64,000 nt of DNA, taken from contig CAZBAF010000005.1 in NCBI GenBank assembly GCA_964490245.1, forward strand, positions 3,216 to 67,215, given 5' to 3'. The notes beneath the pieces are model-generated. The model did no database searches. It worked only from the letters and a program-made list of their open reading frames with translations, and was not told the origin of the DNA. A program made the position numbers and the translations under genes. Source of the DNA: an uncultured Candidatus Saccharibacteria bacterium (GTDB taxonomy: Bacteria; Patescibacteriota; Saccharimonadia; Saccharimonadales; JACDBH01). This document shows positions 1 to 52,433 of this stretch, piece after piece. The first letter of the stretch is position 1; each line of letters opens with the position of its first letter.

Positions 1-66
1 TATGTTTTTATCCGGACAGGTTCCCTCTCAGACCGTAACTTCAGGCCGGGCTTGCATGTACTATTT

Positions 67-80
67 TGGCTCCTCCCAGA
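67..80 (-). repeat. 14-nt copy of the tRNA-Phe 3' end
   Basis: tggctcctcccaga equals the T-stem/acceptor 3' end of the intact tRNA-Phe at 413-488. No other tRNA parts lie around it. Confidence 0.6.
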
Positions 81-238
81 ATACTCCTGCGCGCCGAGAA
101 ACTATTTTCTCGGGCTTAGGATATAGCCGTTTGGCCGGAAAACTGACCGGCCAAGCCGTTATTGAACCGCCGACAGGCAGCGGTTCAGGTTGGCAATAAC
201 GACCACGAAAAAACCCGCCACAGGGGCGGGTGCTTTCG

Positions 239-256
239 TGGTGGCTCCTCCCAGAC
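239..256 (-). repeat. 18-nt copy of the tRNA-Phe 3' end including CCA
   Basis: tggtggctcctcccagac is identical to 413-430. On the minus strand it is followed by a hairpin (cccgcc/ggcggg, 214-230) and a T-run, like the intact gene. Confidence 0.7.
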
Positions 257-380
257 AGCGGTCTTTGACCTTCTCCAGCCAAAAGGGTCGAAAGCAAGCT
301 TTCGCGTTCCTTTTGGCTTCCGCCGAACTGACCCGCCAATCGGCGGATCCCAGTTCGAGCCTGCAAAGATATCAGCCAAG
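257..380 (-). repeat. right-type structured tRNA-flank module (Phe locus)
   Basis: Read on the minus strand it has an anti-T-loop-like ggctcgaactggg, a ccgcc-gatt-ggcgg hairpin, a 9-bp gccaaaagg/ccttttggc stem, and ends gagaaggtc before the 3' fragment. The order of elements matches the module at 1597-1699. Confidence 0.45.
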
Positions 381-411
381 TAAAAACCCCACGCGCAGGT
401 GGGGGTTTTAC
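381..411 (-). terminator. rho-independent terminator after tRNA-Phe
   Basis: The minus strand reads aaaacccccac-ctgcgc-gtggggttttt directly after the CCA end. Confidence 0.7.
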
Positions 412-412
412 T

Positions 413-488
413 TGGTGGCTCCTCCCAGACTCGAACTGGGGACACAAGGCTCTTCAGGCCTCTGCTCTACCAACTGAGCTAAAGAGCC
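413..488 (-). tRNA. tRNA-Phe (anticodon GAA), CCA encoded
   Basis: The reverse complement ggctctttagctcagttggtagagcagaggcctgaagagccttgtgtccccagttcgagtctgggaggagccacca folds as a cloverleaf with anticodon loop CTGAAGA. Confidence 0.92.
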
Positions 489-620
489 GAATTTAATCGA
501 TCTATGAAGTTGATTGTAAATGCCCTCGTCGCGCTAAAGGCTCTAACGCTCGGTGTTAATAAATTGTAACACCTCGCTACCTTGTCAAGCCGTAAAGGCT
601 TGACCGGCGTCAGGCCATTA

Positions 621-644
621 CTCTACCAACTGAGCTAAAGAGCC
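621..644 (-). pseudogene. tRNA-Phe 5' fragment (acceptor 5' strand plus D-arm)
   Basis: ggctctttagctcagttggtagag is identical to the first 24 nt of the intact tRNA-Phe. It then diverges into 132 nt of hairpin-rich spacer. Confidence 0.7.
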
Positions 645-721
645 GCAAATTACGGATTAGCACGACGCCGCTTATTTTACTGCAGAACGGGGAATTTCTC
701 AAGGTGACTTTATGGGTACGG

Positions 722-1078
722 CTAGGCCATCATGGCCAGGCTTTTTGACAGCTCGCTCAGATCTGCAATCTGCTTGTCTATGTCGACAAACTTCATATCG
801 GCTTCGCCCTGGGCTGCAGTAATGTCCCGTTCGAGCTGCTTGATCTCGTCATCCAGGCGACGCACCTGTGTGTCAAACTGTACTCGTTCGAGCTCGTTCT
901 GGGTCCGGGCCTGCTGCTGGCGAATGATGTTCTGTTGCGATTTAAGTTCGTTTATTTGCTGCATCATCTCATTCTTGCGCGCATCTGTTTGCTCTTTGAC
1001 TTGCTGACGCAGGAGCCTCAGATCATCGGTGGCGCGCAGAATATTGGTAGCGGCGGTCTGTAGGTGAACATTTGGCAT
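722..1078 (-). CDS. hypothetical coiled-coil protein (118 aa)
   Basis: The ORF has a Q/E/R/L-rich heptad-like composition, an aaaggatcatcctc sequence before the ATG, and its own promoter at 1188-1217. Confidence 0.6.
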   Translation of the reverse strand: MPNVHLQTAATNILRATDDLRLLRQQVKEQTDARKNEMMQQINELKSQQNIIRQQQARTQNELERVQFDTQVRRLDDEIKQLERDITAAQGEADMKFVDIDKQIADLSELSKSLAMMA

Positions 1079-1187
1079 GAGGATGATCCTTTATTAATTA
1101 AGGCATCTTAAAGTATAAAAAGAGGAAGCGGTCAGTGTCTGTAAGAAAGATTACAGCGCATTGCACGAAAAATGACCCTATCTTCTT

Positions 1188-1217
1188 ATTATAGCACAGA
1201 TTACGTATGTTTGTCAA
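1188..1217 (-). promoter_or_regulatory. sigma70-type promoter P1 (TTGACA-N18-TGcTATAAT) with conserved leader
   Basis: The minus strand reads cttgacaaacatacgtaatctgtgctataat followed by aagaagatagggtc. It is a member of the 3-copy motif family (see 16615 and 48451). Confidence 0.65.
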
Positions 1218-1277
1218 GTCTCGGCTAAAATTCTTTGCTTATCTCTGTTGATATGATATTATTCTTTGGATAATTCC

Positions 1278-1330
1278 GGGTTGTTAGCTCAGTTGGCCCT
1301 GGTCTCTCGTTTACACCGAGAGGGTCGGGG
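1278..1330 (+). pseudogene. tRNA-Val 5' part (positions 1 to the 5' strand of the T-stem), decayed D-arm
   Basis: The first 19 nt and a further 26 nt (tctcgtttacaccgagagggtcgggg, including the TAC anticodon loop) are identical to the intact tRNA-Val at 1477-1553. It is interrupted right after gtcgggg. Confidence 0.75.
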
Positions 1331-1452
1331 TGAGAACTGCCAGTGGCTCCGCTGAAGAGCGGATCGCAAGGGAATCTTCCGATGCAAGCTGTGCTTGCAA
1401 TCGCGAAGTTCCGGGCCCGCCGGAGGTGGGTCGAGTCCTGGACTCGAACCCC
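1331..1452 (+). repeat. left-type structured module V (122 nt)
   Basis: It starts tgagaactgccagtgg, contains tcgcaagg, a long hairpin at 1371-1412, and a terminal near-palindrome ggtcgagtcc-tg-gactcgaacc. It is collinear with 24143-24262. Confidence 0.6.
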
Positions 1453-1476
1453 AATTAGTTTTACAATTACAAACAA

Positions 1477-1553
1477 GGGTTGTTAGCTCAGTTGGCTAGA
1501 GCATCTCGTTTACACCGAGAGGGTCGGGGGTTCGAGTCCCTCACAACCCACCA
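1477..1553 (+). tRNA. tRNA-Val (anticodon TAC), CCA encoded
   Basis: gggttgttagctcagttggctagagcatctcgtttacaccgagagggtcgggggttcgagtccctcacaacccacca forms a 77-nt cloverleaf. Confidence 0.92.
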
Positions 1554-1555
1554 TG

Positions 1556-1586
1556 AAAAAAGCCGTCACTTGTGACGGCTTTTTTC
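1556..1586 (+). terminator. rho-independent terminator after tRNA-Val
   Basis: aaaaaagccgtca-cttg-tgacggctttttt. Confidence 0.8.
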
Positions 1587-1596
1587 ATGGTATGAT

Positions 1597-1699
1597 CCGG
1601 GGACTCGAACGGGAATGTCCAGTGGACATTCCCCGCCCTTGGCTTTTCGGCTGTGCTGAAAAGTTTCTGTAGCAAAAGTAAGTTTCTTTTGCGCAGGAA
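1597..1699 (+). repeat. right-type structured module V2 (103 nt)
   Basis: ggggactcgaac (complement of a T-loop), hairpin ggaatgtcc-agt-ggacattcc, hairpin cttttc-ggctgtgct-gaaaag, ending gcaggaag. Confidence 0.55.
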
Positions 1700-1723
1700 G
1701 GTCGAGTCCCTCACAACCCACCA
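1700..1723 (+). pseudogene. displaced tRNA-Val 3' part (T-loop to CCA)
   Basis: ggtcgagtccctcacaacccacca matches 1530-1553 of the intact gene at 23 of 24 positions. Confidence 0.75.
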
Positions 1724-1730
1724 ATACAAG

Positions 1731-1758
1731 AGACCCTGCTGCCAAGTAGGGTCTTTTG
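1731..1758 (+). terminator. hairpin plus T-tract after the tRNA-Val 3' fragment
   Basis: agaccct-gctgccaagt-agggtct-tttg. Confidence 0.55.
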
Positions 1759-1878
1759 TACTGACGGATCATAATTCCGCCCGGCGGCAACCTGACAAAA
1801 TGCCGGCAGGCACTATGAAAAAGCAAGCCACAAGTGCTATACTAAAACCATAAACTAACAGGGGAGAGAGACAGAATT

Positions 1879-2445
1879 ATGATGTGGTTACTTATTGTCG
1901 GCGGCGTTGTGTTGCTGCTGGTTATTATTTTTGCAGCAATGTACAACGGCCTGATCAGGCTGAATATTCGTGCCGACGAGGCCTGGAGTGACATAACCGT
2001 TCAGATGAAGCGCCGGCTTGACCTTATCCCAAACCTTATCGAAACAGTCAAGGGATACGCCAAGCACGAAAAGGGCGTGTTTGAAGAAGTTACCCAAGCC
2101 CGTACGGCGATTATGAATGCCCAGGGTCCTGCAGAAACGGGCCGGGCCGAGAACATGCTGGAAGGCGCACTAAAGAGCATTTTTGCAGTTGCCGAGGCAT
2201 ATCCTGATCTGAAGGCTGATGCCAACTTCCGTGATCTGCAAGCCGAGCTGGTTGATACTGAGAACAAAATCCAGGCCTCACGCCGGTTTTATAACGGTGT
2301 AGTACGCGACTTTAACACCAAGCGCCGGGTGTTCCCGACCAATATCTTTGCCAGCATGCTGGGCTTTAAAGCCGACCGCGAGTTCTTTGATGTTGAAGAT
2401 GGCGAACGCGAAGAAGTCAATAAGCCGGTATCGGTCAAATTTTAA
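1879..2445 (+). CDS. lemA: LemA family membrane protein
   Basis: An N-terminal TM helix is followed by YNGLIRL...EAWSDI...RRLDLIPNLIETVKGYAKHE, typical of LemA. Confidence 0.88.
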   Translation: MMWLLIVGGVVLLLVIIFAAMYNGLIRLNIRADEAWSDITVQMKRRLDLIPNLIETVKGYAKHEKGVFEEVTQARTAIMNAQGPAETGRAENMLEGALKSIFAVAEAYPDLKADANFRDLQAELVDTENKIQASRRFYNGVVRDFNTKRRVFPTNIFASMLGFKADREFFDVEDGEREEVNKPVSVKF

Positions 2446-2479
2446 AAGTGTATTTTGTATAGCGTATTACGTATAGCGT

Positions 2480-2854
2480 ATGACTAATCCAATTAACTCA
2501 TTTACGCAGTTGAGGACATGGCAAAAAGCACGCGATTTTGCAGTTGCAGTCTATAAAACTACAGCTGAGTTTCCTGCATCAGGAAAGTACGGGATGTCAT
2601 CACAGTTACGTCGCGCCACCGTTTCGGTTGCGGCAAACATAGCGGAAGGCTTCTCTCGTAACACCGCTAAAGAAAAGTTGAATTTTTATGGAATGAGCCT
2701 CGGTTCACTGACTGAAGTGCAGAGTCATCTATATATCGCACATGATCTTGGGTTTGTCAGCAAATCACAACTTGTGCTGCATATAGACGAGTCGGTAGCT
2801 ATACAGAAGATGATCAATGGTTTAAAGAAAAGTGCGAAAGGGAGAGATACGTAA
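2480..2854 (+). CDS. four-helix-bundle protein (23S rRNA intervening-sequence protein / Avd-like family)
   Basis: TWQKARDFAVAVYKTT..FP....YGMSSQLRRATVSVAANIAEGFSR..........GSLTEVQSHLYIA matches the family pattern. The gene is flanked by ~18-bp inverted repeats. Confidence 0.8.
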   Translation: MTNPINSFTQLRTWQKARDFAVAVYKTTAEFPASGKYGMSSQLRRATVSVAANIAEGFSRNTAKEKLNFYGMSLGSLTEVQSHLYIAHDLGFVSKSQLVLHIDESVAIQKMINGLKKSAKGRDT

Positions 2855-2881
2855 TACGGTATACGTACTACGAGATACGTT

Positions 2882-3763
2882 ATGTATAGTTCAATCACTG
2901 CCAACAAGCGCAAGACCGTCATTATTATGGCGTTCTTTGTGGTGCTGATTGGTGGGCTGGGATGGGTGTTTAGTCAGCTGTATGGCGGCGGGGCGCCCAG
3001 CGTGACGATTGGTGTGCTGATCGGTGCACTGATCTACACGCTGATCAGTTACTACAGTGCGTCAAAGATTGCGCTGGCGGTGAACGGTGCGCAAGAGATC
3101 CAACAAAAGGACAACCCGCGGCTGTACCGGATTGTTGAGAATATTGCCATCACCGAGGGCATGCCTATGCCGAAAGTGTACGTCATGCAGGATGCGGCGC
3201 CGAATGCATTTGCGACCGGCCGCGACCCCAATCATGCGGCTGTCTGTGCAACAACCGGCCTGCTGAAGATTATGGATGACAGCGAGCTGCAGGGCGTCAT
3301 GGCCCACGAGATGGGACATGTGAAGAATTATGATATCCGGGTCAGTATGATTGCCTTTGCTATGGTGGCAGTCATTGGTTTGCTGGCCGATATTCTGCTG
3401 CGCATGACGTTCTTCCGTGACCGCAACAGCAACAACAACCAGATTATGCTGCTGCTGGGTATCGCCGGGGCGATTTTGGCACCGATTGCTGCCATGCTGA
3501 TTCAGCTGGCAATATCGCGGCAGCGTGAATATCTGGCCGATGCCACCGGGGCGCTCAGTACGCGTTACCCAGAGGGGCTGGCCAGTGCGCTCGAAAAAAT
3601 CGGCCAGTACGGATCGGCACTCAAAAGTCACCAAAACTCCAGCACAGCCCATTTGTTTTTTGCCAATCCGCTGAAGGGCAAGAGTATTGCCGCACTGTTT
3701 AGTACCCATCCGCCCATAGAGGAGCGGGTTGCCCGTCTGCGTAGCATGGGGACAAAGGCGTAG
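2882..3763 (+). CDS. htpX: zinc metalloprotease HtpX (M48)
   Basis: HEMGH motif, four TM segments, and a C-terminal STHPPIEERV. Confidence 0.92.
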   Translation: MYSSITANKRKTVIIMAFFVVLIGGLGWVFSQLYGGGAPSVTIGVLIGALIYTLISYYSASKIALAVNGAQEIQQKDNPRLYRIVENIAITEGMPMPKVYVMQDAAPNAFATGRDPNHAAVCATTGLLKIMDDSELQGVMAHEMGHVKNYDIRVSMIAFAMVAVIGLLADILLRMTFFRDRNSNNNQIMLLLGIAGAILAPIAAMLIQLAISRQREYLADATGALSTRYPEGLASALEKIGQYGSALKSHQNSSTAHLFFANPLKGKSIAALFSTHPPIEERVARLRSMGTKA

Positions 3764-3770
3764 CAATCCG

Positions 3771-6739
<2,969 letters not shown>

Positions 6740-22364: not shown

Positions 22365-23951
22365 CTATTTATTCTTCTCTTGGCGGTTGAGGCGGTAGTG
22401 GTAAGTGGGGTAGCGTGAGCCTAATGTAAATGGATTGATGTATACATTTACCCGCGGCATTACGGCAAGCATTTTTGCTTCTAGCTGTTTTGTCCACGCT
22501 TGCCGCTGGCCGCGGTTTTTTGGCAGCAAGTCTACCCGCAGCGGTTTCGAGAGGATTGCCATTATCGCCGAGACAGTCCATGCCTGAATACGCTCTGGTT
22601 TGTTGGTGCTATTGACTTCTATAACATTCCCGTGGGAATGCTTAACTGGTTGCTTGGTGAGAACCCGGCCGTTTTTGTCCACGAACACAAATTCTTGGTA
22701 ATGCCGGCTCTTGAGGAACACGTTCAATAGGCGGCTCTCCAGTTGTGCCGCCAGCTTTGGAAAGCCCTGGCGTCTTAAACCTTTGGCGATGTCGTATGTT
22801 TCTTTGGGCCAAGATACGAAGGATCCATGATAATCCCAGTGGCCAACAAGATCTGCGGCTTCCAATGAGCGGCTGCGGATACCTGCACGGGTAAGAAAGT
22901 TACTACTTAGTATGTGCTCCACAATTCCCGTAACATACAGCTTCTTGTCTTTTTGGGGCAGACCGTCAAAGAAACCAGTATCCAAGAGTGCGGCCGGGTT
23001 GGCGGTAGTGGTCTGGATAATGCGTAGCTTTCCGTCTGGTCCATAATCGGTACCGAGTGCAAAGTAATTAGCTTCGGGTTGCCAAAGCAATTCTATCGTC
23101 CGGTCACGGACTTTTTGCGCGGCGGCCTGGTAATCTTCTGCTTTTTCGGGGAACAATTTAGCTGCGGTTTGCAGGGCATCGTATGTCAGGCCCTGCACCT
23201 CGATTGATGCGATAGGTGCGTTGTGATTCACGGGCTGTTTATCGGCGTGGATGTAGAATTCGTCAGAATCTTTCCATACTTGATTGAGTATGCTGTGCGG
23301 GTTTTGGTGTTGGAACTCTAATAAGCCAGAACGGGATTCTGCAAGGCGGGAGAAAAGCCAATCTACCGAAGCTTGGGCGGCTTCGGCCATGGTGTAGCCC
23401 ATTCCGTCGTAGCGGATGACAAGGCTTTGCAAGATACGCTTACCGTATAAGTCTACATAACAGCCAAGTGTTCTTAGGAATTGCGGTGTGGCATCAATGG
23501 ATCCGTAGTATCTTAGCTCGTCGTCGGTGCCGCCCCATTTGTCGCTGAGCTCTTTGAATATTTTGCGAGAGGCGTCATTGATTGGCTTTTTATCTACCAA
23601 AGTAGTACGGTATTCGTGGATTATTTTTCCTGGTTCTTCCTCGTTATCTTTGCGGTTTTCGGCTCCTTGCAAACTGGCAAGCGTCATAAGGATATTGCGG
23701 GCCAGCCGCGGTTTGATCCGCATAAGATCCTCGGCAACTTCTAGCGAGTCGCGGCCAAAAACTGCTCCTTTGTACAAAATATCAGAGCTAGCATAGACGC
23801 CTAGACCGGACTTAGAAGTGACACTCCGAAGGGCAAGGGTAGGTATAACTAACGCATTCTCTGGCTGTGTTAAGCCGGCAATAATCGCTTTGACCATAAG
23901 GGCATTATACCTCTCTAAAGTTTTTGTAAAAGTTAAACGGGGCTCTACCAA
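22365..23951 (-). CDS. amylo-alpha-1,6-glucosidase / glycogen-debranching-type (alpha/alpha)6 hydrolase
   Basis: GKIIHEYR...YYGSIDATPQFL pattern. The start is either TTG at 23951 or ATG at 23897. Confidence 0.7.
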   Translation of the reverse strand: MVEPRLTFTKTLERYNALMVKAIIAGLTQPENALVIPTLALRSVTSKSGLGVYASSDILYKGAVFGRDSLEVAEDLMRIKPRLARNILMTLASLQGAENRKDNEEEPGKIIHEYRTTLVDKKPINDASRKIFKELSDKWGGTDDELRYYGSIDATPQFLRTLGCYVDLYGKRILQSLVIRYDGMGYTMAEAAQASVDWLFSRLAESRSGLLEFQHQNPHSILNQVWKDSDEFYIHADKQPVNHNAPIASIEVQGLTYDALQTAAKLFPEKAEDYQAAAQKVRDRTIELLWQPEANYFALGTDYGPDGKLRIIQTTTANPAALLDTGFFDGLPQKDKKLYVTGIVEHILSSNFLTRAGIRSRSLEAADLVGHWDYHGSFVSWPKETYDIAKGLRRQGFPKLAAQLESRLLNVFLKSRHYQEFVFVDKNGRVLTKQPVKHSHGNVIEVNSTNKPERIQAWTVSAIMAILSKPLRVDLLPKNRGQRQAWTKQLEAKMLAVMPRVNVYINPFTLGSRYPTYHYRLNRQEKNK

Positions 23952-23994
23952 GAAACGCCGTTATCTGTTAAAATAGGGCAGTTCCAAAAAATAC

Positions 23995-24142
23995 TGGGGA
24001 TTGGCCATTCGCTGGCTAGCGAAGGTAAGGCAACGGTGAGAACTGCCAGTGGCAGTTTGGAAACGAACCTTCTCTTGAGAACTTGTTTTCAAAGTTGAAG
24101 TTCGGGGGTCGCGGAACGTGACTCTAGGTCCCGTGATCGGGG
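23995..24142 (+). pseudogene. mosaic tRNA-Gln 5' part: three exact tRNA pieces separated by insertions in the D-loop and anticodon loop
   Basis: Pieces 23995-24007, 24024-24036 and 24127-24142 are identical to the intact tRNA-Gln. A 16-nt hairpin (24008-24023) replaces agt, and a 90-nt module (24037-24126) replaces gttct of the anticodon loop. Confidence 0.75.
24037..24126 (+). repeat. structured module I2 (90 nt) in the anticodon-loop position
   Basis: It starts tgagaactgccagtggcagtt and has a long hairpin at 24064-24104 and a small hairpin gtcgcg-gaa-cgtgac. It is a paralogue of 24143-24262. Confidence 0.6.
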
Positions 24143-24262
24143 AGAGACATGCCACTGGCATGTCGCAAGGACATCAACTCTTGAGAACTATGTTCTCAAA
24201 GATGTTGTGTCGGGGTCGCAGGATGTGACGGCGGAACGTCGGTCGAATCCGGGTTCGAACCC
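24143..24262 (+). repeat. left-type structured module I3 (120 nt) in the T-loop position
   Basis: agagacatgccactggcatgtcgcaagg, a long hairpin at 24171-24210, gtcgca-gga-tgtgac, and a terminal ggtcgaa-tccggg-ttcgaacc. It is collinear with 1331-1452. Confidence 0.6.
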
Positions 24263-24289
24263 TTTGTATGTTAAAATCAGAGTAATTAT

Positions 24290-24363
24290 TGGGGATTGGC
24301 CAAGTGGTAAGGCAACGGGTTCTGGTCCCGTGATCGGGGGTTCGAATCCCTCATCCCCAGCCA
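24290..24363 (+). tRNA. tRNA-Gln (anticodon CTG), CCA encoded
   Basis: tggggattggccaagtggtaaggcaacgggttctggtcccgtgatcgggggttcgaatccctcatccccagcca. Confidence 0.9.
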
Positions 24364-24381
24364 AGCATAAGCACTATGAAA
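24358..24381 (+). repeat. 24-bp direct repeat DR1 (tRNA-Gln 3' end plus flank)
   Basis: cagccaagcataagcactatgaaa is identical to 26625-26648. Both copies are followed by a gacttc/gaagtc-type hairpin. Confidence 0.85.
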
Positions 24382-24406
24382 GACTTCCATCAGAGAAGTC
24401 TTTTTG
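24381..24406 (+). terminator. terminator hairpin after tRNA-Gln
   Basis: agacttc-catcaga-gaagtct-tttt. Confidence 0.7.
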
Positions 24407-24423
24407 TTTGTTATGATAATCCT

Positions 24424-24903
24424 ATGTCTTATTCTCAAAAATATTGTTTAGTCTCATTTATTAACCCAATTGGTACTAATACCGAGTTTGATATGACTGA
24501 TTGGCCATTACACGTTACATTGGCTGATGTGTTTGCAATAGATCTTCGCAAAACCAAAATTGAAGCTAAGCTAGAAAAACTATTATCAAGCCATCATCCA
24601 ATTAAAACGCTTGCAGGTATTGAAGCTACTCTAGGAACCACGGAAGTAATCTTGTTAGATAAAACCAAGGAGCTTGATGCTCTACATTCTAGTACGGTTG
24701 ATCTACTTGAGGATAACGGTGCACAATTTAATACTCCGGAATTCACAAGAGGGGGATTTGTGCCTCATTGCACCATTCAGAAGGTGGAGAGGCTACTTAT
24801 GGGTGATGAAGTGATTATTAGAAACATAGCACTCGTTGATATGTTCCCTAATGAAAATTGGCAGCAAAGAAAGATCATTAACATATTCAGATTACAGGAT
24901 TAG
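24424..24903 (+). CDS. 2H phosphoesterase superfamily protein (LigT / 2'-5' RNA ligase-like)
   Basis: Two H-x-T-x motifs (LHVTL and PHCTI) lie about 85 aa apart. The start is moved to the ATG at 24424, past the terminator hairpin. The sequence is AT-rich. Confidence 0.65.
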   Translation: MSYSQKYCLVSFINPIGTNTEFDMTDWPLHVTLADVFAIDLRKTKIEAKLEKLLSSHHPIKTLAGIEATLGTTEVILLDKTKELDALHSSTVDLLEDNGAQFNTPEFTRGGFVPHCTIQKVERLLMGDEVIIRNIALVDMFPNENWQQRKIINIFRLQD

Positions 24904-24949
24904 GCTTAAACTCTGTGATATAGATAGAGTTGCGAAGTACGTCACGTAA

Positions 24950-25012
24950 CCCCAGCCAGCAGCAAATTGAACTAATAGGTTCGAATGAAAGACTTCTTCG
25001 GAAGTCTTTTTT
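24950..25012 (+). repeat. middle att-like unit: ccccagcca (tRNA-Gln end) plus ggttcgaat plus terminator hairpin
   Basis: ccccagcca at 24950-24958, then atgaaagacttc-ttcg-gaagtcttttt, which resembles the segment after DR1. Confidence 0.6.
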
Positions 25013-25042
25013 ATTTGATTGACATAGGTTACATTACTTCAT

Positions 25043-26584
25043 ATGCCCTCTCTCTACATTAATCAGCAAACTGAAGCCGAGAAGGACGATTACTTATTCG
25101 ATTGCTTTCACGACACAGGCGTCATTTCGGAATTGGTTCATTCAAGGTATACAATTTTGGCAGGCCGTAAAGGCATGGGAAAATCAGCAGTCGCAAGATA
25201 TCTTGAAAAGAATGCTGAAAAATACGATCTTGATTTTGTTTTCAAGTTATCGATCCGCAATTTTAACATAAAGCGGTTTGATACTGAAAAGAACACTCTT
25301 GACTCTATTCTGTACTATGTAGTGGTCAAGTCTATACAGAAAATGCTTAATGTTAATTATTTTTCTAATGAAGCAGCCAAATACTGGAAGGACTTTTTAC
25401 TAGATAATGGCCTACAGCAGCTAGCCGATTATGAATCTTTTGTGACCACAAAAAAATCCCGAAAAACTGGGTTTTCTATAAAAGCAGTAGCTTCCTACCT
25501 ATTTGCTAAAGGCGAAGGCAGCACAAAGTTGAATTTCGAAACTGAAAAGCAACGTGCCGAAATTGCCGACTCACCATCTTCTCTATTTGATTCTCTTCGA
25601 CAGAGTATTAATCCTAAACATAAAGTAATCATTTTTATTGATGATATTAGCGATTACCTAGACGAATCTGACAGAAACGTATTATTAAAAGATCTTGCTA
25701 TCATTCAAAACCTTCTATTAAATTTGCAAACCTATAACCTTAATTTTGCAGAGGAGGAGCTGAATCTTCGTTTTGTATCATTGGTTAGAGACGACATCTT
25801 TGAGTACATGGAAGGCTCGAATGTAAATAAATTAAAAACGGATAGCTTGAAACTTGTTTGGGATGAAAAGGCTTTTGCAAGTTTGCTTATTCGACGAATG
25901 CCCTATTTTGCCGACAAGCTAGATGAGGCGCTTGAAAACCCAGTGACTTCACTTAAGGAACGTTTTCCCGATGATATATTTACGGACTTCCTAAAGTCAT
26001 TCTCGACAAACCGATACGGCAGTAACTTCTATGCATACATGGCGGCAATATCATTCAACAGACCCCGTGATTTCCTTCAGTTTTGCTATGCGTTGCGTAA
26101 TCGTTTAAGTTTACGCCACCCTGCAACATTTGAGAACATTGATGCCGCAGAAATCGAATATTCCAATTATTTTATACAGGAACTGCGTGACGAACTATAC
26201 GTAGCTAGCAGGGTTTTTGATTATGACTTTAGTCAGGAGCGCATCGATCACTTAGTAGATATATTGAGTAAGAATGACATGTTTAACTCATCCCAATTAA
26301 AAACAGATCTCTCTGCCTTTATAGGCACAAAGACCAGCATCGGAAATAAAAAAATTGAAGCCTTACTCGCAGAGTTGTGGAGATACGGGGTAATAGGTGT
26401 TTCCGAAAAACCTACTAAATCTATAAAGCCAGCCAAAAAGACTACTCCCGAGAAAACAGAAAAATTAATACTTTTTAAGTATTTATCTGATTCAGCGGTC
26501 TTCACATCAGAGAAAATAAAAAACTACACATTTTACCTACATCGAGGCTTGTGGTGGTTTGCTAAAAAGAGACGAAACGATTAA
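25043..26584 (+). CDS. P-loop NTPase, uncharacterised (513 aa)
   Basis: Walker A GRKGMGKS, Walker B-like VIIFIDDISD, a later RPRD motif, and a long helical C-terminal region. The sequence is AT-rich. Confidence 0.7.
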   Translation: MPSLYINQQTEAEKDDYLFDCFHDTGVISELVHSRYTILAGRKGMGKSAVARYLEKNAEKYDLDFVFKLSIRNFNIKRFDTEKNTLDSILYYVVVKSIQKMLNVNYFSNEAAKYWKDFLLDNGLQQLADYESFVTTKKSRKTGFSIKAVASYLFAKGEGSTKLNFETEKQRAEIADSPSSLFDSLRQSINPKHKVIIFIDDISDYLDESDRNVLLKDLAIIQNLLLNLQTYNLNFAEEELNLRFVSLVRDDIFEYMEGSNVNKLKTDSLKLVWDEKAFASLLIRRMPYFADKLDEALENPVTSLKERFPDDIFTDFLKSFSTNRYGSNFYAYMAAISFNRPRDFLQFCYALRNRLSLRHPATFENIDAAEIEYSNYFIQELRDELYVASRVFDYDFSQERIDHLVDILSKNDMFNSSQLKTDLSAFIGTKTSIGNKKIEALLAELWRYGVIGVSEKPTKSIKPAKKTTPEKTEKLILFKYLSDSAVFTSEKIKNYTFYLHRGLWWFAKKRRND

Positions 26585-26624
26585 GCCAGACTTAAAACTT
26601 GGTTCTAATATTGTCGCTGATGCT

Positions 26625-26648
26625 CAGCCAAGCATAAGCACTATGAAA
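26625..26648 (+). repeat. 24-bp direct repeat DR2
   Basis: Identical to 24358-24381. It is followed by a degenerate hairpin aaaaactt-ttccgg-aagtcttt. Confidence 0.85.
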
Positions 26649-26711
26649 AACTTTTCCGGAAGTCTTTCATTTTATGCTTGTTTATAAAATTATAAATTCT
26701 AGTATGTCGGT

Positions 26712-27119: not shown

Positions 27120-27240
27120 CTGAAAGTTGCGAAGTACGTCTACTAAGGGCGGCCAAGTTAAGTGCCCGCTTTCGAGCGGGCTTTTAACTTGGTGCGGATC
27201 AAAGAGCAAGCTGCTTTGCCTTTAGGGTTTCGGCTCGTAA

Positions 27241-27265
27241 GTCGAATCCCCTTATCCGGTGCCGC
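27241..27265 (+). pseudogene. possible degenerate tRNA-Gln 3' part (T-loop to acceptor)
   Basis: gtcgaatccccttatccggtgccg against gttcgaatccc-tcatccccagcca gives a 9-mer plus 8 of 13 matches. It is preceded by a gcaagctgctttgc hairpin like the module hairpins, and it overlaps the last codons of the FMN reductase gene. Confidence 0.3.
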
Positions 27266-29452: not shown

Positions 29453-31225
29453 ATGAATATCAGGAAAGTACTTCGGCTGACGCACCGCGAGCTGACGGCA
29501 AGCCCAATGGTGCCCGCGGTTTTGGTGTTCTTGACGTTTTTAGTATTGATTGCCTCGGGTTGGCGGACGGCGTATGTCGATATAGACAATACGCGCGACA
29601 GGCTGGTGGGTGAACGGGCAATATTGAACGAGAATAACGTGCTTCAACAGGTGCACTCGTACGAGAATGCACTGCTTGCAGCACGCGGCCTAATGCTTAG
29701 CAGTGATGAAGTGAATCGCGAGGAGTGGACGAGTTTTGTGGGCGCGCTGAGATTGGGCGAGCGGCGGCGGGGCATGCTTGGATTGGGGTATGCTGAATTT
29801 GTTGCTGCTGACAATCTTGACCGGTACGAACGCACGGTGCGCGCCGACGGGGCGACGGGTTTTCGCATTTGGCCGAAAGAACCGCGGCGTGATGCCTATA
29901 CAACCATTAAATACATTGAGCCTTTCAATAATATCAACCGCTCGGCACTTGGTTATGACATGTACTCTGAACCAACCCGCCGCAAAGCTATGGACCGCGC
30001 AGCCGAAACCGGGCAGCCGGCTATGACCTCAAAATTACTGCTGGTGCAGGGCGGCGAAAACCGGATGGTAGGTCTGAACCTGTATCAGGCTTTGTATCGA
30101 GAGGGAGTGCCGCTTGAGACGGAAGAACAGCGGCGGGCAGCCGTTAAAGGTTTTGTCTACGCTCCGTTTATAACCGAGCAGCTGTTCTCGAGCGTGTTTG
30201 AAGAGCGTGATCAGCGTTATAATGTCCGGGTTTATGACGGGCTTGAAGCCAATCCGGATAATCTGCTTTATGCCCAGCACGAAAGCGACCATGGCTATAG
30301 CTGGGTTCGCACCGATACCGTGGGGGTGGCTGGAGCGCACTGGACCTTTGAGTTTGGTATAAGCGATACGGCCATACCAAAAGCTATTCGCGATCGTCCG
30401 CGCAATGTGCTGGGCGGCGGCCTTATCCTGGCCTTTGGTGTGGCGACATTGGTCTATCTGCTTTTGCAGCGCCGTATGAAAAGTCTGGCCGAGAAAGAAG
30501 AGCGCCGGGTGCAAAAGGCTAAGGACAGTATGCTCTCGTTGGCTTCGCACCAGCTCCGCACACCGGCGACCGGCGTCAAGCAGTATGTCGGCATGGTGCT
30601 GGAGGGCTTTACCGGCGATCTGTCCCCCGAACAGCAGGCTATGCTGCAGAAAGCCTACGACAGCAATGAACGGCAGCTGCGTATCATCAACGAGTTTCTA
30701 TACCTGGCCAAGACAGAGGCCGACAGAATTATCGTGACGCCGCAGCGGTTTGAGCTGCGGCCGCTGGTGCAGGATGTGCTGGACACCATGCAGGACGAAA
30801 TTCGGGAGGCCGGCCATACCGTCCGGCTTATGTCGCCTAAAAGGCGCGTTTATGTGGCTGCAGATATTCACAGTACCCGGATGATAATCGAAAATCTTAT
30901 CAGCAATGCAGTTAAGTACACGCCGCCAGGTGGCAAAATTGATATTACGATTAAAGATAAAAGGGGCGAGGTGCAGGTTGTTGTCAAAGATTCGGGCGTG
31001 GGCATAGCAGAGAAGGATTTTCCAAAACTTTTCCGTCAGTTTTCGCGTATTCCCAACGAGCTGACCAAGCAAACGCCGGGCAGCGGCATCGGACTGTACC
31101 TGGCCTGCCAGCTGGCCATAAGAAATAAGGGTTCTATCACGGTCGCTTCGGAGCAGGGTAAAGGTTCTGAGTTTACTCTGCATCTGACAGCGAAAACAGT
31201 AAGAAATTTTACAGAAAACCAGTGA
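29453..31225 (+). CDS. sensor histidine kinase with an extracytoplasmic CHASE domain
   Basis: CHASE-like segment (YTTIKYIEPFNNINRSALGYDMYSEPTRR), a second TM helix, a HisKA H-box SHQLRTP and an HATPase_c domain. An alternative GTG start lies at 29441. Confidence 0.85.
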   Translation: MNIRKVLRLTHRELTASPMVPAVLVFLTFLVLIASGWRTAYVDIDNTRDRLVGERAILNENNVLQQVHSYENALLAARGLMLSSDEVNREEWTSFVGALRLGERRRGMLGLGYAEFVAADNLDRYERTVRADGATGFRIWPKEPRRDAYTTIKYIEPFNNINRSALGYDMYSEPTRRKAMDRAAETGQPAMTSKLLLVQGGENRMVGLNLYQALYREGVPLETEEQRRAAVKGFVYAPFITEQLFSSVFEERDQRYNVRVYDGLEANPDNLLYAQHESDHGYSWVRTDTVGVAGAHWTFEFGISDTAIPKAIRDRPRNVLGGGLILAFGVATLVYLLLQRRMKSLAEKEERRVQKAKDSMLSLASHQLRTPATGVKQYVGMVLEGFTGDLSPEQQAMLQKAYDSNERQLRIINEFLYLAKTEADRIIVTPQRFELRPLVQDVLDTMQDEIREAGHTVRLMSPKRRVYVAADIHSTRMIIENLISNAVKYTPPGGKIDITIKDKRGEVQVVVKDSGVGIAEKDFPKLFRQFSRIPNELTKQTPGSGIGLYLACQLAIRNKGSITVASEQGKGSEFTLHLTAKTVRNFTENQ

Positions 31226-41154: not shown

Positions 41155-41271
41155 AACACCCCCTAGTTTATGCTTATGGTTGAGCCCATTATCTGGCTTT
41201 GCTTTTGGTAAGTCAATGACGTTTGTGTTTTTACGTCCGCTTCGTTATAGTGAAAGTGCTTAACAACCTAA

Positions 41272-41384
41272 ATATCAAGAGTGCAGCGAGAGTCCTAGCT
41301 CTGTGACCTGCCAGCAACCTGCTTAATAAGGCGAAGCCGTAAGTAAGGTGCTTCATCTAGCCGCCTGTATGGGTGGAAAGATAT
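41272..41384 (+). promoter_or_regulatory. SAM riboswitch (SAM-I clan) upstream of metK
   Basis: aUAUCAAGAG...GAGAG...GCAACC...AAGGUGC...aaGAUAU, with P1 pairing auauc/gauau. The downstream hairpin tatcctttc/gaaaggata plus T-run (41394-41429) covers the RBS. Confidence 0.65.
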
Positions 41385-41429
41385 GTTTTCTCGTATCCTT
41401 TCAGCTATATAGGCAGAAAGGATATTTTT

Positions 41430-42419
41430 ATGTCAAAACCAATTTACAGAACTGCAGAGTCGGTAAGTCCAAGGCACCCGGACAAAATCTGCGATCAACT
41501 ATCGGATGCGATTTTGGACGCATACCTGGCAGAAGATCCTGATGCGCGTGTGGCTGTCGAGGCTGTCGGCGGACACGGCAAAGTATTTGTGACGGGTGAG
41601 GTGACTAGCATTGCACATCCGAACATAGAGCCCATCATCAAGCGCATCGCAGGCGAGAATATTGAAGCAGAAGTGCGGTTGGTCAGGCAGAGTCCGGAGA
41701 TTGCGCAGGGCGTTGACATAGGCGGCGCTGGCGACCAAGGCATAATGGTAGGCTATGCTACGGATGAGACTCCGGAACTTTTGCCGCTTGAAGTTGTGCT
41801 AAGTAGAAAACTCAACCAACACCTTTACAGTATCTGGCCGCATGACGGCAAAACGCAGGTAACGCTCAAGAATGGCATTATCCAATCGGCTGTTGCCAGC
41901 TTTCAGCACGCGTCAGGACGTGAGCTGAGGAAAGCGGTTGCCAGGTGGCTAGAGGAAAACGGGTATGACCCCGGCAACGTTGAAATACACGCCAACCCGG
42001 CGGGCGATTGGCAGCAGGGCGGGTTTGACGCTGATACTGGCCTGACTGGACGTAAACTGGTGGTTGATAATTATGGTCCCCGGGTCCCAATTGGGGGTGG
42101 CTGTTTCAGCGGCAAAGACCCGAGCAAAGTCGACCGTTCGGCAGCCTACATGGCGCGTAAGGTTGCGGTAGATTACTTGAAAAAGCATGACGCCAAAGAA
42201 GTCTTTGTATACCTTGCCTATGCCATCGGCTACGCCCAGCCGCTTGAGGCGACGGTCATTATTGACGGCAGGCACGAAGAAATCAAGGGCTATGATTTGA
42301 CGCCGCGCGGGATAATCCAGGCCCTGGAACTGAGGCGCCCGATTTACGAACAGACTGCCAGGTACGGGCATTTTGGGCACGCCGGGTTACCGTGGGAGGA
42401 TGCTATACTCAAAGCATGA
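41430..42419 (+). CDS. metK: S-adenosylmethionine synthetase (short, 329 aa)
   Basis: [22 protein letters not shown]...[12 protein letters not shown]...[19 protein letters not shown]. Confidence 0.9.
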
Positions 42420-50182: not shown

Positions 50183-52258
50183 TTAATCCTGGGCGGCAAA
50201 GCGGGACAGCAGGTCAGTGCGCGTAATCACCAGATAACCCGTTGTCAGGACGCTGAGTACGATAAGGAAGGTAGGGTTAAACCCGTTTGTCGCGGGTGCG
50301 CTGGCGGATGCTGCGCTGGCGGCGGATTCGGCAGGCTGGCTTGGGGCGGCCGGACCAATCTCGTAAGCGCTGGCCAGCACGGCGTTGCCATCGTCATCGG
50401 CATTAAAACTGACTGCAAAGGTTCGTACTGCGCTGACTGCGGGCCGCCTGGCCGTTAATGACGGGCTGCCCATACCCATGCCGCCGGCTGGTCTGACGGG
50501 CTGCGGTCCGGACGGGGCAGGTCCTGCTGCGACAGAATTGCCATAGGGCGTGTTCGTGCCAAAGCTGCCGTACCAGTTTCCAAAAATGTTGATAAAGAGC
50601 AGGCCGAACCAGCCGTTAAGCGAAAAGTGATTGCCGGCGATGTTGCCGATATTGACGCCGGCATAGGCATTGCCGGATCGGGCGCTGCCCGCCTGTGTAT
50701 TGTTGCTGACTTCGGCATCGCCGCTGTATGCGCCGACGTTAACGTTGTTATGTATGGCCGCGGTTGTGTTTATGTCGTACGAAGCGTTGCCGCCGGCCGG
50801 ATTGTAGCTAGTCAGACCGCCGCCGAGAGCCGCAGCGGTTGCACCCTGCGGTGCATTGGTAATAAAACCAATCCACTCGCCTGAGACATTCACAAAGACC
50901 AGCAAAGCATCACGTCCCACCACGCTGTGTCCGGTCAGGTTAAAGACCGTTACATTTGTCTCGGCGCTGCCGGATGCGGCGCCGCCGGCAATGGTGTTGC
51001 CCGCCACTGTGGCCGAACCGCTGGCTGCAGTAGCGTTGACATTATTTGTAATGGTGGTGTCTGAATTGATATCAGCCAGGGCATCGCCGCAGGCGCACGG
51101 ACCGATGTCCACTGTCGGCACGTTGGCGGCAATTAATGTGTCCACAACCTCTTGCGGCATCAGTACATCGCCTTCGTAATTGCCGTGGATGTTCAGCACG
51201 CCTATAAAAGATTGGCCGGCGGTTATCGAGCTGTTGATCATATTAATAATATTGGCAACCGCAGTCGCGTCGCCGGTGGTGGCATCACCGGCTTTTGTGT
51301 TGGCGCTGACGGTGGCGTCACCGCTTTGCGCCAGCAGATCAACGGTATTATTGATGTTGCCATCGACACTGGCATTGACGCTCAGCTCGCCGCAGGCACA
51401 GTCCTGCGATCCCGTCCCGCCGAACAGCGTGGGATCAATCAATATATCGCCATAGTAATCGCCCTGAATAGTCGAGGTGTAGATTTCAGGCAGCAAGCCC
51501 TGCCAGCCAAAGTTGGATTGAAGCATATTCATAACAGTGGCCATTGCTGTTGCATCACCGGAAGCAGCACTGCCGGCAACGGTGTTTTGCAGCACGGCGG
51601 CATTGCCGCTTATGGCTGATGAGGAAAGGCCGGTATTAAGACTCGCATCTACGTCCACGTTGAGCGTGGTGCCGCCGTTTTGACCAGGCAAGATGCTGTT
51701 ATGGGTTTGTCCGGATACAGTCGGCAGGAGGGCTGAGCCAGAGGTTGTCGGCGCGATACTGTCATTCGAATCTGTTTGATCGGCACCAGATGGTACAGAT
51801 GGTGTAGTGGTATTGTTATTGTCGGACGGGTTGTCCTGAGGTGTATTCTCAGCCGGGGGTGCAGGCTGCACCACGGGTGCATAGGTGCTCGTTATCTCGT
51901 AGGCGTAAGCACCGCGCGGGGCGTGATATACCCATTCGTATACCTCCCAGCGGTTGAGTTCGGCGTTAAAGCGGTGTTCTGGTGTGTATTTTGGTATGGC
52001 GGTGCCGGCGGCCGAATCCCAGGTGTAATAGGCATTCTGCCAGGCATTGATGGTGCAATCATAGGTATAGGTGTGGGCGGCAGAGCCGGTTGGCCGGCGG
52101 GCAGTGTCCGGTGCCACACAGACAGGCTCGGGCTCAGGCGGTGCGGCCTCTTGGGCCAGCGCGCGCGAAGCCAGCGGAAGTGATAAAACCAGGCAGTAGG
52201 CTGCAGTGATCAAGCAGATTACCGATGATTTGATGGCGTTTACCGCGCTAACTTTCAT
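50183..52258 (-). CDS. large secreted repeat protein with a C-terminal TM anchor
   Basis: Signal peptide and a gaggagg RBS. At least four repeats of C-x-C-G ... SG(D/N/S)A-x-V-x-x-NT-x-AG-x-A-x-(S/T)G-x-A. Pro/Ala-rich stalk and a final hydrophobic helix. Confidence 0.75.
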   Translation of the reverse strand: MKVSAVNAIKSSVICLITAAYCLVLSLPLASRALAQEAAPPEPEPVCVAPDTARRPTGSAAHTYTYDCTINAWQNAYYTWDSAAGTAIPKYTPEHRFNAELNRWEVYEWVYHAPRGAYAYEITSTYAPVVQPAPPAENTPQDNPSDNNNTTTPSVPSGADQTDSNDSIAPTTSGSALLPTVSGQTHNSILPGQNGGTTLNVDVDASLNTGLSSSAISGNAAVLQNTVAGSAASGDATAMATVMNMLQSNFGWQGLLPEIYTSTIQGDYYGDILIDPTLFGGTGSQDCACGELSVNASVDGNINNTVDLLAQSGDATVSANTKAGDATTGDATAVANIINMINSSITAGQSFIGVLNIHGNYEGDVLMPQEVVDTLIAANVPTVDIGPCACGDALADINSDTTITNNVNATAASGSATVAGNTIAGGAASGSAETNVTVFNLTGHSVVGRDALLVFVNVSGEWIGFITNAPQGATAAALGGGLTSYNPAGGNASYDINTTAAIHNNVNVGAYSGDAEVSNNTQAGSARSGNAYAGVNIGNIAGNHFSLNGWFGLLFINIFGNWYGSFGTNTPYGNSVAAGPAPSGPQPVRPAGGMGMGSPSLTARRPAVSAVRTFAVSFNADDDGNAVLASAYEIGPAAPSQPAESAASAASASAPATNGFNPTFLIVLSVLTTGYLVITRTDLLSRFAAQD

Positions 52259-52433
52259 AAAAAATTGCCTCCTCAATTACCCCGCTTTCGCGGCAAGAGT
52301 GAGAGCAGACCTTTGCTCACTCTTGCCGCATGTTGACGTCCGCCTGGGGCCTCTCTGTCCATCACGTTAACGTAAAAGTGAGTGATGCCGTCGGCTCCCG
52401 GTCGGTTATCAAAAAGCTGCTAAAGTACGAACC

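Follow-up and report, generated by a model that had tools for sequence, protein, structure and literature searches.

Group I introns at position 35/36 of transfer RNAs (tRNAs) in Patescibacteria are the nearest system in the literature (PMC13011429) to the element described here. The stretch analyzed (the window) comprises 64,000 nucleotides from an uncultured Candidatus Saccharibacteria bacterium, and at 1278-1723 it holds an intact tRNA-Val gene between a 5' and a 3' partial copy of itself, each joined to a structured arm. The left arm is a member of a widespread family of structured elements that is strand-specific and tied to tRNA fragments; the canonical element, here called the module, has 86 nt. 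Like the introns, the module is a structured RNA in tRNA loops of the same phylum, in sense orientation and with no encoded endonuclease. Unlike them, it is made of four simple helices, has no intron match in Rfam and the wrong boundary bases, and sits in truncated pseudo-copies beside an intact gene, not in a working gene.

Islands in tRNA and transfer-messenger RNA (tmRNA) genes share several features with the locus: the intact gene is followed by a displaced T-loop-to-CCA copy, the inserted side provides the 3' end and a terminator, tmRNA is used as well, and real serine-recombinase islands and cassettes lie at identical tRNA ends. However, a unit measures only about 150-200 bp, has no integrase and carries a displaced copy that is interrupted by a structured module, and the units have 5' fragments, inverted copies and locus-specific flanks for 17 amino-acid identities. 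Rickettsia palindromic elements, REPINs and miniatures derived from IS200/IS605 are non-coding elements of about 100 nt with stable hairpins and many copies, which insert at tolerated gene positions, are retained in orthologous places and have an obscure or trans-acting mechanism; the module may be likened to them on these counts. Unlike such small repeats, it lies strictly in tRNA-type hairpin loops after a G and strictly in sense, has no terminal inverted repeats or target duplication, and conserves its primary sequence too. Archaeal and algal disrupted tRNAs have interruptions in the D-loop, anticodon and T-loop, sometimes two per copy, as in the window tRNA-Gln unit and locus L156 (L numbers denote fetched loci), but here the host is bacterial, there is no bulge-helix-bulge, the pieces are incomplete and the intact gene stands alongside. 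Since the junctions abut the P1 and P4 hairpins of the module at one end of the host stem, no 3-nt bulge/4-bp helix/3-nt bulge is possible. Integron attC sites are likewise strand-specific folded elements (about 60-140 nt), and arrays of promoterless open reading frame (ORF) cassettes at a fixed site occur here as well (L137, L231). In contrast to attC, the module has no GTTRRRY core, its boundaries are G/UGAGAAC and GUGAC/C, consecutive cassettes are joined by a tRNA 3'-end core without the module, and the sequence of the module is conserved, not its structure alone.

The Val locus is best read as an upstream unit (1278-1452) and a downstream unit (1554-1723), independent of each other, around a gene with its own promoter-like site. 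Its parts are:

1278-1330, + strand: 5' copy of tRNA-Val, positions 1 to ~52 (to the 5' strand of the T-stem), D-arm disrupted; host part of the upstream unit
1331-1430, + strand: structured module of the R1 family with a 14-nt extra hairpin within P1; cmsearch 76.5 bits, E = 1.8e-15, full-length
1431-1452, + strand: T-loop remainder TCGAGTCC, then inverted T-arm copy GGACTCGAACCCC; jointly a hairpin in the predicted fold
1453-1476, + strand: AT-rich spacer with a -10-like TACAAT at 1462-1467, 10 nt 5' of the intact tRNA
1477-1553, + strand: intact tRNA-Val, anticodon TAC; ARAGORN, and Rfam tRNA model at 68.7 bits
1554-1587, + strand: symmetric terminator-like hairpin, potentially bidirectional (A-tract, hairpin, T-tract); a perfect hairpin in the fold
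1588-1612, + strand: inverted, diverged 3' part of tRNA-Val, read from the sequence; begins with TGG (complement of CCA) and contains GGGGACTCGAAC
1611-1699, + strand: divergent second module, with P1-like hairpin GGGAAUGUCC-AGU-GGACAUUCCC and two further hairpins
1700-1723, + strand: 3' copy of tRNA-Val, T-loop to CCA; 23/24 identical to 1530-1553
1724-1762, + strand: terminator hairpin behind the 3' fragment (sequence and fold)

The earlier note on this DNA had described the same stretch as a tRNA-Val gene split in its T-loop, and a base-for-base sequence check of 1278-1723 found all of its features in place. The 5' fragment is identical to 1477-1529 at 47 of 53 positions, with the first 19 and the last 26 nt exact, as claimed, and the D-arm alone differing. 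The match of the 3' fragment, the intact gene inside and the 10-mer GGACTCGAAC on both sides of it (1440-1449 and 1601-1610) proved equally correct, and so did the statement that no recombinase gene lies inside, as there is no ORF of at least 100 aa within 1278-1723 and none in 1554-1699. The promoter-like site of the intact gene, TGGACT-17-TACAAT (1439-1467), spans the inverted T-arm, which supplies its -35-like hexamer, and the AT-rich spacer. TACAAT-like boxes were also read by eye in the spacers of L124, L134, L156 and L225, and an extended -10 box, TGaTATTAT, was read from the sequence (not called by a tool) ahead of the 5' fragment at ~1255-1263. A consensus terminator scan listed neither the 1554-1587 nor the 1724-1762 hairpin. 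The stretch 1270-1765 folds much better than shuffled sequence (z = -11.8), and the layout of the inverted copy at 1588-1612 recurs in downstream units at other loci. An independent assembly, L001, is identical over window positions 1514-3836, covering the interior of the intact tRNA, the right arm, the 3' fragment and the downstream genes; thus the right side of the locus is not an assembly artefact. Contig L001 terminates within the repeated tRNA-Val sequence, and the left arm and 5' fragment lie outside it, so that the independently confirmed part is 1514 onward.

The left arm opens with a 19-mer, GGTGAGAACTGCCAGTGGC, that recurs exactly at 24035-24053, upstream of tRNA-Gln. A motif scan of the genome collection returned eight clearly real matches and one possible, three of them labelled Candidatus Saccharibacteria and the others unclassified metagenome-assembled genomes; most matches of the 15-mer scan in that collection came by chance from a coding motif that is conserved. 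The scanned motif occurs in at least 120 metagenome loci and had zero matches in viral contigs, leaving a phage origin unsupported. The covariance model R1 detected 141 copies in 124 fetched loci plus the window. With at least 141 copies beside tRNA genes, the left arm is thus a tRNA-associated element and not one odd insertion. The strong copies in the window are at 24037-24122, 24143-24229 and 1331-1430; the model that scored the last of these was built from other genomes and the window tRNA-Gln copy, with the Val arm excluded, and 1331-1430 also matches dozens of module copies in other loci by BLAST.

The canonical alignment of 58 copies defines an 86-nt module with four helices, P1-P4, in the order UGA, P1 (GAACUGCC-AGU-GGCAGUUC), GCAAGG, P2 enclosing P3, CGGGG, and P4 (GUCGC-GGA-ACGUGAC). 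In alignment A1, 96.9% of the cells are paired and 21 of the 31 pairs have compensatory changes; none of 500 shuffles was as good, and slid controls were 28-42% paired. The broader, model-derived alignment A4 shows covariation in 28 of the 31 pairs, P1 among them. A G·U pair is retained in 55 of the 58 sequences, and its conservation fixes the functional strand. The covariance search that the earlier note had put forward thus bears out the left arm, with 141 matches and strong covariation. Rfam 15 at the gathering threshold found tRNA and one SAM riboswitch, and nothing else, in the whole window. Around the arms (1-1900 and 23900-24450) it gave no intron or family match even with E allowed to rise to 5; the highest-scoring sub-threshold hit to a module was whalefall-1, with 12 bits against a gathering score of 37. 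Neither Val arm matches a known intron, insertion sequence (IS) element or Rfam family, and no description of the module or its units was found in Rfam or in the papers that were searched, in agreement with the earlier view that no element class with this layout has been described.

The positions of the modules are highly regular. Among the 141 matches, 108 lie within 450 nt of an intact tRNA, all 108 on the strand of that tRNA (56 upstream and 52 downstream), and the modules adjoin tRNAs for 17 amino acids, plus tmRNA. Every module is located in the D-, anticodon- or T-loop hairpin of a partial tRNA or tmRNA copy. Of the four kinds of site, the T-loop is used most often, with the module between G53 and C56; the others are the D-loop, position 25/26, and the loop or stem of the anticodon arm. 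At the 70 junctions examined, the base at -1 is G in 70 and the base at -2 is G in 55; the module ends with C in 56 and with G in 13, and the base after it is C in 47 and T in 19. About two host loop nucleotides are replaced. Modules also occur nested in other modules, at GGG^GU^CGC of P4 (L134, L159, L220), which resembles the T-loop site GGG^UU^CGA, and in tandem arrays (L134, L144, L148). In L225 a single module has tRNA-Pro sequence on its left and tRNA-Trp sequence on its right, which indicates that modules recombine or are recombined.

Two types of unit carry the modules. An upstream unit consists of the tRNA 5' part, one module or sometimes two, the remainder of the hairpin, an inverted T-arm, a spacer with a -10-like box, and the intact tRNA; such units may stand in tandem (three in L134, two in L144). 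A downstream unit begins with the intact tRNA, a symmetric terminator, an inverted and diverged tRNA 3' third starting with TGG, and a short turn, followed by the variable region with the 5' strand of the T-stem, the module, the T-loop-to-CCA segment and a terminator. Its module usually starts 72-91 nt past the tRNA end. In 18 of 41 tRNA/module pairs the downstream 3' fragment is identical to the local tRNA at no fewer than 19 of 21 positions, and the inverted copy is more decayed than the 3' fragment. In its predicted fold, a downstream unit forms a closed junction of several helices, with the inverted copy paired to the 3' fragment.

The right arm of the Val locus appears to be a divergent, module-like element of a different type from the left arm. 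Against model R1, only its P1-like hairpin scores, with weak and partly minus-strand matches. BLAST found one homologue, L225 429-542, which is 84% identical over 114 nt and lies after tRNA-Trp and ahead of a tRNA-Gln 3' end; the right arm is predicted to fold as a closed four-way junction. The earlier note had taken both arms for structured elements; many copies and strong covariation bear this out for the left arm, and for the right arm one homologue and a similar predicted fold point the same way. The other units in the window are:

23995-24262, + strand: upstream unit of tRNA-Gln; modules at 98.9 and 87.3 bits
23995-24036, + strand: 5' tRNA-Gln fragment of this unit, with a hairpin in the D-loop
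24037-24122, + strand: module 1
24123-24142, + strand: tRNA-Gln middle piece
24143-24229, + strand: module 2
24230-24240, + strand: extra bases GGCGGAACGTC
24241-24250, + strand: T-loop
24251-24262, + strand: inverted T-arm
61-412, - strand: two downstream units of tRNA-Phe in tandem (gene 413-488); repeat family D7
27193-27258, + strand: putative decayed downstream-type remnant with no tRNA adjoining (terminator, inverted-like segment, GTCGAATCCCCTTATCCGGTGCC), read from the sequence

Each tRNA-Phe unit has a terminator, an inverted copy, a divergent module and the 3' fragment TCTGGGAGGAGCCA(CCA); the arm at 258-352 (- strand) is a weak R1 match (17 bits, E = 0.04) in which the four-helix layout is preserved. 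The segment at 27193-27258 has no R1 match, and we regard it, with low confidence, as a probable decayed remnant of the downstream type. Three further sites had been named as related to the Val arms: 24037-24262 stands with its two strong modules, 257-380 is weak, and 27150-27240 has no R1 match. At 489-660 (- strand), the intact tRNA-Phe gene is preceded by a 5' fragment of tRNA-Phe (610-645, 92% identical to it), after which come hairpins that do not match R1, perhaps a further variant of the upstream unit.

Related genomes show how the units behave over longer times. Four divergent genomes share a downstream unit between tRNA-Leu(TAA) and LemA; among them the module subtype varies and the 3' fragment follows the tRNA of each genome. 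Units in the T-loop of tRNA-Gln(CTG) and after the D-arm of tRNA-Gly likewise occupy identical positions in several divergent genomes, and the orthologous tRNA-Gln(CTG) modules have compensatory differences in P2 and P4. L242 has no unit at tRNA-Leu and just a decayed remnant at tRNA-Phe, and L247 retains a truncated, orthologous tRNA-Phe unit whose last hairpin has compensatory changes. As estimated from the sequences, the copies of the window share only about 60-65% identity, and similar subtypes at different tRNAs of other genomes up to about 90%. The LemA protein of the window has 79% identity to a protein annotated as Candidatus Saccharibacteria, which by itself makes an origin in that group probable. 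At the Val locus itself, close relatives (LemA 88-91% identical) have tRNA-Phe, tRNA-Cys or tRNA-Leu, or another gene, before LemA; the locus is rearranged in them, so that no clean comparison of filled and empty sites is possible there. Comparison of window 1-1280 with L242 1-930 and L247 700-2500 showed that tRNA-Phe and a neighbouring gene of ~117 aa are inverted in the window, and before LemA the relatives have tRNA-Cys and tRNA-Leu(TAA) where the window has tRNA-Val. The region between unit-bearing tRNA loci has thus undergone rearrangement. A gene for a '23S rRNA intervening-sequence protein' (PF05635, bAvd-like) lies at 2480-2854, between LemA and an M48 peptidase; since it is missing there in L242, L243, L245, L247 and L248, which are most of the close relatives, it is a recent insertion.

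The tRNA ends that bear units are also integration hot spots. In L229 (218-13764), the CCA end of tRNA-Arg is separated from a downstream unit by a 13.4-kb island, which carries a large serine recombinase and has its far end marked by the partial core GCGTGTACCA; because of this position, the unit is part of the target locus and not of the island. Large serine recombinases with Resolvase and Recombinase domains also abut the 3' end of tRNA-Gln (L140 45-1505 and L164 312-1850) and of tRNA-Gly (L224 3316-4812). Beside the tRNA-Gln gene in L140 there is a plain 3' fragment without a module. At the 3' end of tRNA-Lys, L137 (11163-12700) and L231 (reverse strand, 267-2130) hold integron-like arrays of small-ORF cassettes, each bounded by GGCCCTCCA, which is the tRNA-Lys 3' end, with conserved ends AAC..TTATGCTTAAA at the start and AATAGnnnACACAATG at the end. 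The arrays come after the downstream unit and are mixed with further units; they include GNAT acetyltransferases and a zinc-ribbon protein, and their content differs between the two related strains. In the window, a 2.27-kb island of low GC (~0.40) at 24364-26653 lies directly 3' of the tRNA-Gln CCA end, bounded by the 23-nt repeat AGCCAAGCATAAGCACTATGAAA (repeat regions 24347-24386 and 26614-26653). It has no integrase. Its proteins, one 2H/2'-5' RNA-ligase-like (24376-24903) and one an AAA/STAND-like ATPase (25043-26584), were assigned from Pfam matches below threshold, and the island resembles a defence-type cassette. A motif, CACTATGAAA, followed by a hairpin stands at gene or cassette starts at 1808-1838 (just upstream of LemA), 24978-25008, 26636-26666 and 31013-31043, and may be a shared cassette-start or promoter/terminator signal.

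To look for a partner enzyme, we clustered the ORFs of all loci and scanned against Pfam 113 of the non-redundant ORFs (110-620 aa) nearest modules, together with two added serine-recombinase ORFs. The result consists of the best 25 families listed for these 115 ORFs, from which families of single occurrence could escape. The recombinase families listed were Resolvase and Recombinase, in three serine-recombinase ORFs (two of them deliberately added), all belonging to CCA-end islands and not to units; no tyrosine integrase, IntI-type or other, and no Y1 transposase was listed.

The module lacks the defining features of group I introns, miniature inverted-repeat transposable elements (MITEs), bulge-helix-bulge introns, attC sites and plain attachment-site (att) scars, and has no more than general traits in common with small structured selfish repeats. 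It is a strongly covarying 86-nt element confined to the loops of partial tRNA or tmRNA copies beside intact genes, in sense wherever checkable. The group I intron core (P3-P8, RF00028) had no match in 1-1900 or 23900-24450 at E up to 5 and none at the gathering threshold across the window. A group I intron follows a U of the exon, ends with G and restores the gene on removal; here G precedes the module at all 70 junctions and the host copies lack 1-2 loop bases. As for MITEs and DDE-type elements, the ends UGAGAAC... and ...GUGAC are not inverted repeats, and the replacement of ~2 nt takes the place of a target duplication. The strandedness and hairpins do agree with IS200/IS605-type elements and REPINs, with P1 at the 5' end, P4 at the 3' end, and neither inverted repeats nor target duplication. 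Such elements have a fixed 4-5-nt target 5' of the insertion and a cognate HUH (Y1) transposase; on the 5' side the module has just (R)GG, its end hairpins are unlike each other, and no Y1 family was among the best 25 Pfam families listed for the 115 ORFs. The repeat 1530-1553/1700-1723 bounds inserted DNA as an att scar would, but 1554-1699 has no integrase ORF, and the displaced identity block is split by the module.

We propose tentatively, with somewhat less than even confidence, that the module is a small non-coding intervening element which is, or formerly was, mobile, a mobility deduced from the pattern only. Insertion-like behaviour is seen in the invariant G at -1, the four kinds of site, the nested, tandem and chimeric copies, and the loss or decay of units in L242. 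The module would target GG^NN^CR in tRNA-type hairpins, namely the T-loop, the anticodon loop of tRNA-Pro and, within the module itself, the T-arm-like P4. Because insertion into a single, essential tRNA gene would kill the cell, copies would survive only in redundant gene fragments. Such fragments may arise and be reshuffled by recombination with the tRNA gene: a Campbell-type exchange through a shared tRNA segment, unequal exchange as the source of the tandem arrays, recombination between modules as that of the chimeric flanks, and fold-back copying at terminator or T-arm hairpins as that of the inverted segments. The fold would be selected on the tRNA-sense strand, as RNA or single-stranded DNA, and the machinery would act in trans, with no enzyme encoded inside.

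Several observations weigh against mobility. No transposase, integrase or reverse transcriptase was linked to the module among the Pfam families listed, and neither an excised form nor a clean empty site was seen among the loci compared. The low identity of the copies in the window argues against a recent burst, and the replacement of ~2 nt means that the junctions are not those of clean insertions. An identical tRNA carries its unit at an identical position across several divergent genomes, and compensatory change in orthologous copies in place fits an RNA selected by the host at least as well as a selfish element. In addition, the loci were retrieved by an exact 15-18-nt motif, a sample biased toward one subfamily.

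The units may instead be leader and trailer RNAs with a function for the host, which we consider possible but less probable. In that case they would be small RNAs maintained by the cell, the module being a protein-binding, tRNA-binding or catalytic domain and the tRNA part a handle for recognition or processing, or the tRNA 3' end in a sequestered copy. Their roles might lie in tRNA processing, quality control, decoy or repair, or in extra landing sites at tRNA 3' ends. Orthologous retention with compensatory changes in place, across genomes that are both divergent and streamlined, speaks for such a function, and so does the module's conservation, far better than that of the adjoining spacers as read from the sequences. 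The strict strand bias (108/108), the -10-like boxes and terminators that the units carry, the constant 72-91-nt layout of downstream units with 3' fragments that track the local tRNA, and the gene cassettes of L137 and L231 inserted directly after unit 3' fragments agree with it as well. On the other hand, single units are dispensable, as their loss or decay in L242 and truncation in L247 show; copies that are nested, tandem, truncated or chimeric resemble selfish or recombining DNA; and the host tRNA parts are variably damaged, as in the Val D-arm and in the many 3' fragments without acceptor ends.

It is unlikely that the units are scars or miniature derivatives of integrative elements that target tRNA genes. 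The repeated tRNA part would then be the attL/attR duplication, the intervening 150-200 bp a remnant or a non-autonomous version served by an integrase in trans, and the module an element-end RNA or a folded recombination site. A direct repeat from T-loop to CCA does bound the downstream unit, as in classic tRNA islands, and serine-recombinase islands and ORF cassettes occur at these CCA ends (L229, L140/L164, L224, L137, L231); the module-less 3' fragment beside L140 tRNA-Gln agrees with this reading, and the element side would bring a terminator in downstream units or a promoter-like box in upstream units. However, att duplication does not produce a repeat block split by a module and does not account for the inverted copies, no tyrosine integrase was among the 25 Pfam families listed, and the L229 island places the unit in the target locus. 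Because the units hold tRNA-specific sequence for 17 amino-acid identities, no single element can have moved between them.

It is also rather doubtful that the module is a functional RNA in its own right and of a new class, either a small ribozyme or a specific protein handle, and that it is mobile at the RNA level or domesticated. If mobile, it would insert itself into exposed loops of tRNA or tmRNA transcripts and then be written back into DNA beside the gene, and self-primed copying would have left the snap-back inverted copies at the A-tract/U-tract terminators as its footprint. If domesticated, the unit might present the 3' end of the neighbouring tRNA, antisense-masked, as a decoy, guide or repair substrate; alternatively, it might be a landing pad for serine-recombinase cassettes.

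Several specific candidates were rejected. A serine-recombinase crossover at a 2-bp core does not agree with the mismatched junction dinucleotides, and IS91-type GTTC targeting would place the motif on the wrong flank. Ribozymes of the hammerhead, HDV-like (hepatitis delta virus-like) and other known self-cleaving kinds have no Rfam match here and differ in topology. A guide RNA of TnpB or CRISPR type (scaffold plus 21-nt guide) would make the intact neighbour tRNA a self-target, and no nuclease of this kind was seen. That the downstream unit mimics a cloverleaf does not agree with an inverted T-arm that is mostly unable to fold on itself.

The earlier note had read the Val locus as a single 369-bp insertion, a composite of module, spacer, tRNA-Val, terminator and module that destroyed a resident tRNA-Val in its T-loop and brought the replacement. 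We now consider this improbable. The Val fragments are indeed complementary, the 5' one ending at about position 52 and the 3' one beginning at about 53; since both unit types favour the T-loop, such a neat fit is expected from independent units as well. Among 91 tRNAs with modules, 43 have them upstream only, 41 downstream only and 7, such as tRNA-Glu in L156, on both sides, although 84 of 91 one-sided may be an overcount as R1 misses divergent modules. This split is why we read two units and not one insertion. The break points are often mismatched: L124 and L134 have their upstream break at position 25/26 and their downstream one in the T-loop, and for the window tRNA-Phe the breaks are in the anticodon loop and at ~position 60. 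L156 tRNA-Glu, on the other hand, has its second upstream module and its downstream module both in the T-loop. Furthermore, the two Val arms are different types of module, and the upstream unit retains extra T-loop sequence, so that the fragments overlap rather than abut.

We give next to no weight to ordinary tandem tRNA duplication with neutral decay, or to an intron spliced out of a working tRNA: there are partial copies of tRNAs and tandem arrays, and group I introns are known in Patescibacteria tRNA genes (PMC13011429), but an 86-nt element with 21-28 covarying pairs at 141 or more sites is beyond neutral decay, no intron model matches, the boundary bases are G/U...C/C and not U/...G/, and removal would leave an incomplete tRNA as the host copies are truncated. 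None of the outcomes that the earlier note had set against its own proposal (plain duplication and decay, a lack of further copies, or a known intron or IS) was found.

If the module is mobile, it would be a new kind of gene-less element with a structural target, the tRNA-type hairpin, and would help to explain the rearrangement and island hot spots at tRNA loci of these genomes. If it is a host RNA, it would define a tRNA-linked RNA family with about one member per tRNA gene. Saccharibacteria have ultra-small genomes and an almost unexplored RNA biology, and they are now culturable and genetically tractable; the covariance model makes the choice between mobility and host RNA directly testable. 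Regardless, the units can break assemblies and confuse tRNA annotation, as the end of L001 in repeated tRNA-Val sequence illustrates.

Some further features were noted. Upstream of tRNA-Pro(GGG) units, a conserved and apparently structured stretch with GGGTACCCACC/GGGCACCCACC (L030 7560-7760; L090, reverse, ~3950-4125; L144, reverse, ~1890-2000) may be another RNA motif. The SAM riboswitch (S-box) of the window lies at 41269-41387 (54.7 bits), upstream of ORF 41373-42419. At 50666-52539, 61-nt repeats recur every ~300 nt, mostly in the minus-strand ORF 50183-52276, which encodes a repetitive protein, with an extra copy at 52479-52539. Finally, 60107-60190 holds three overlapping 42-nt copies of a tandem repeat with a 21-nt period.

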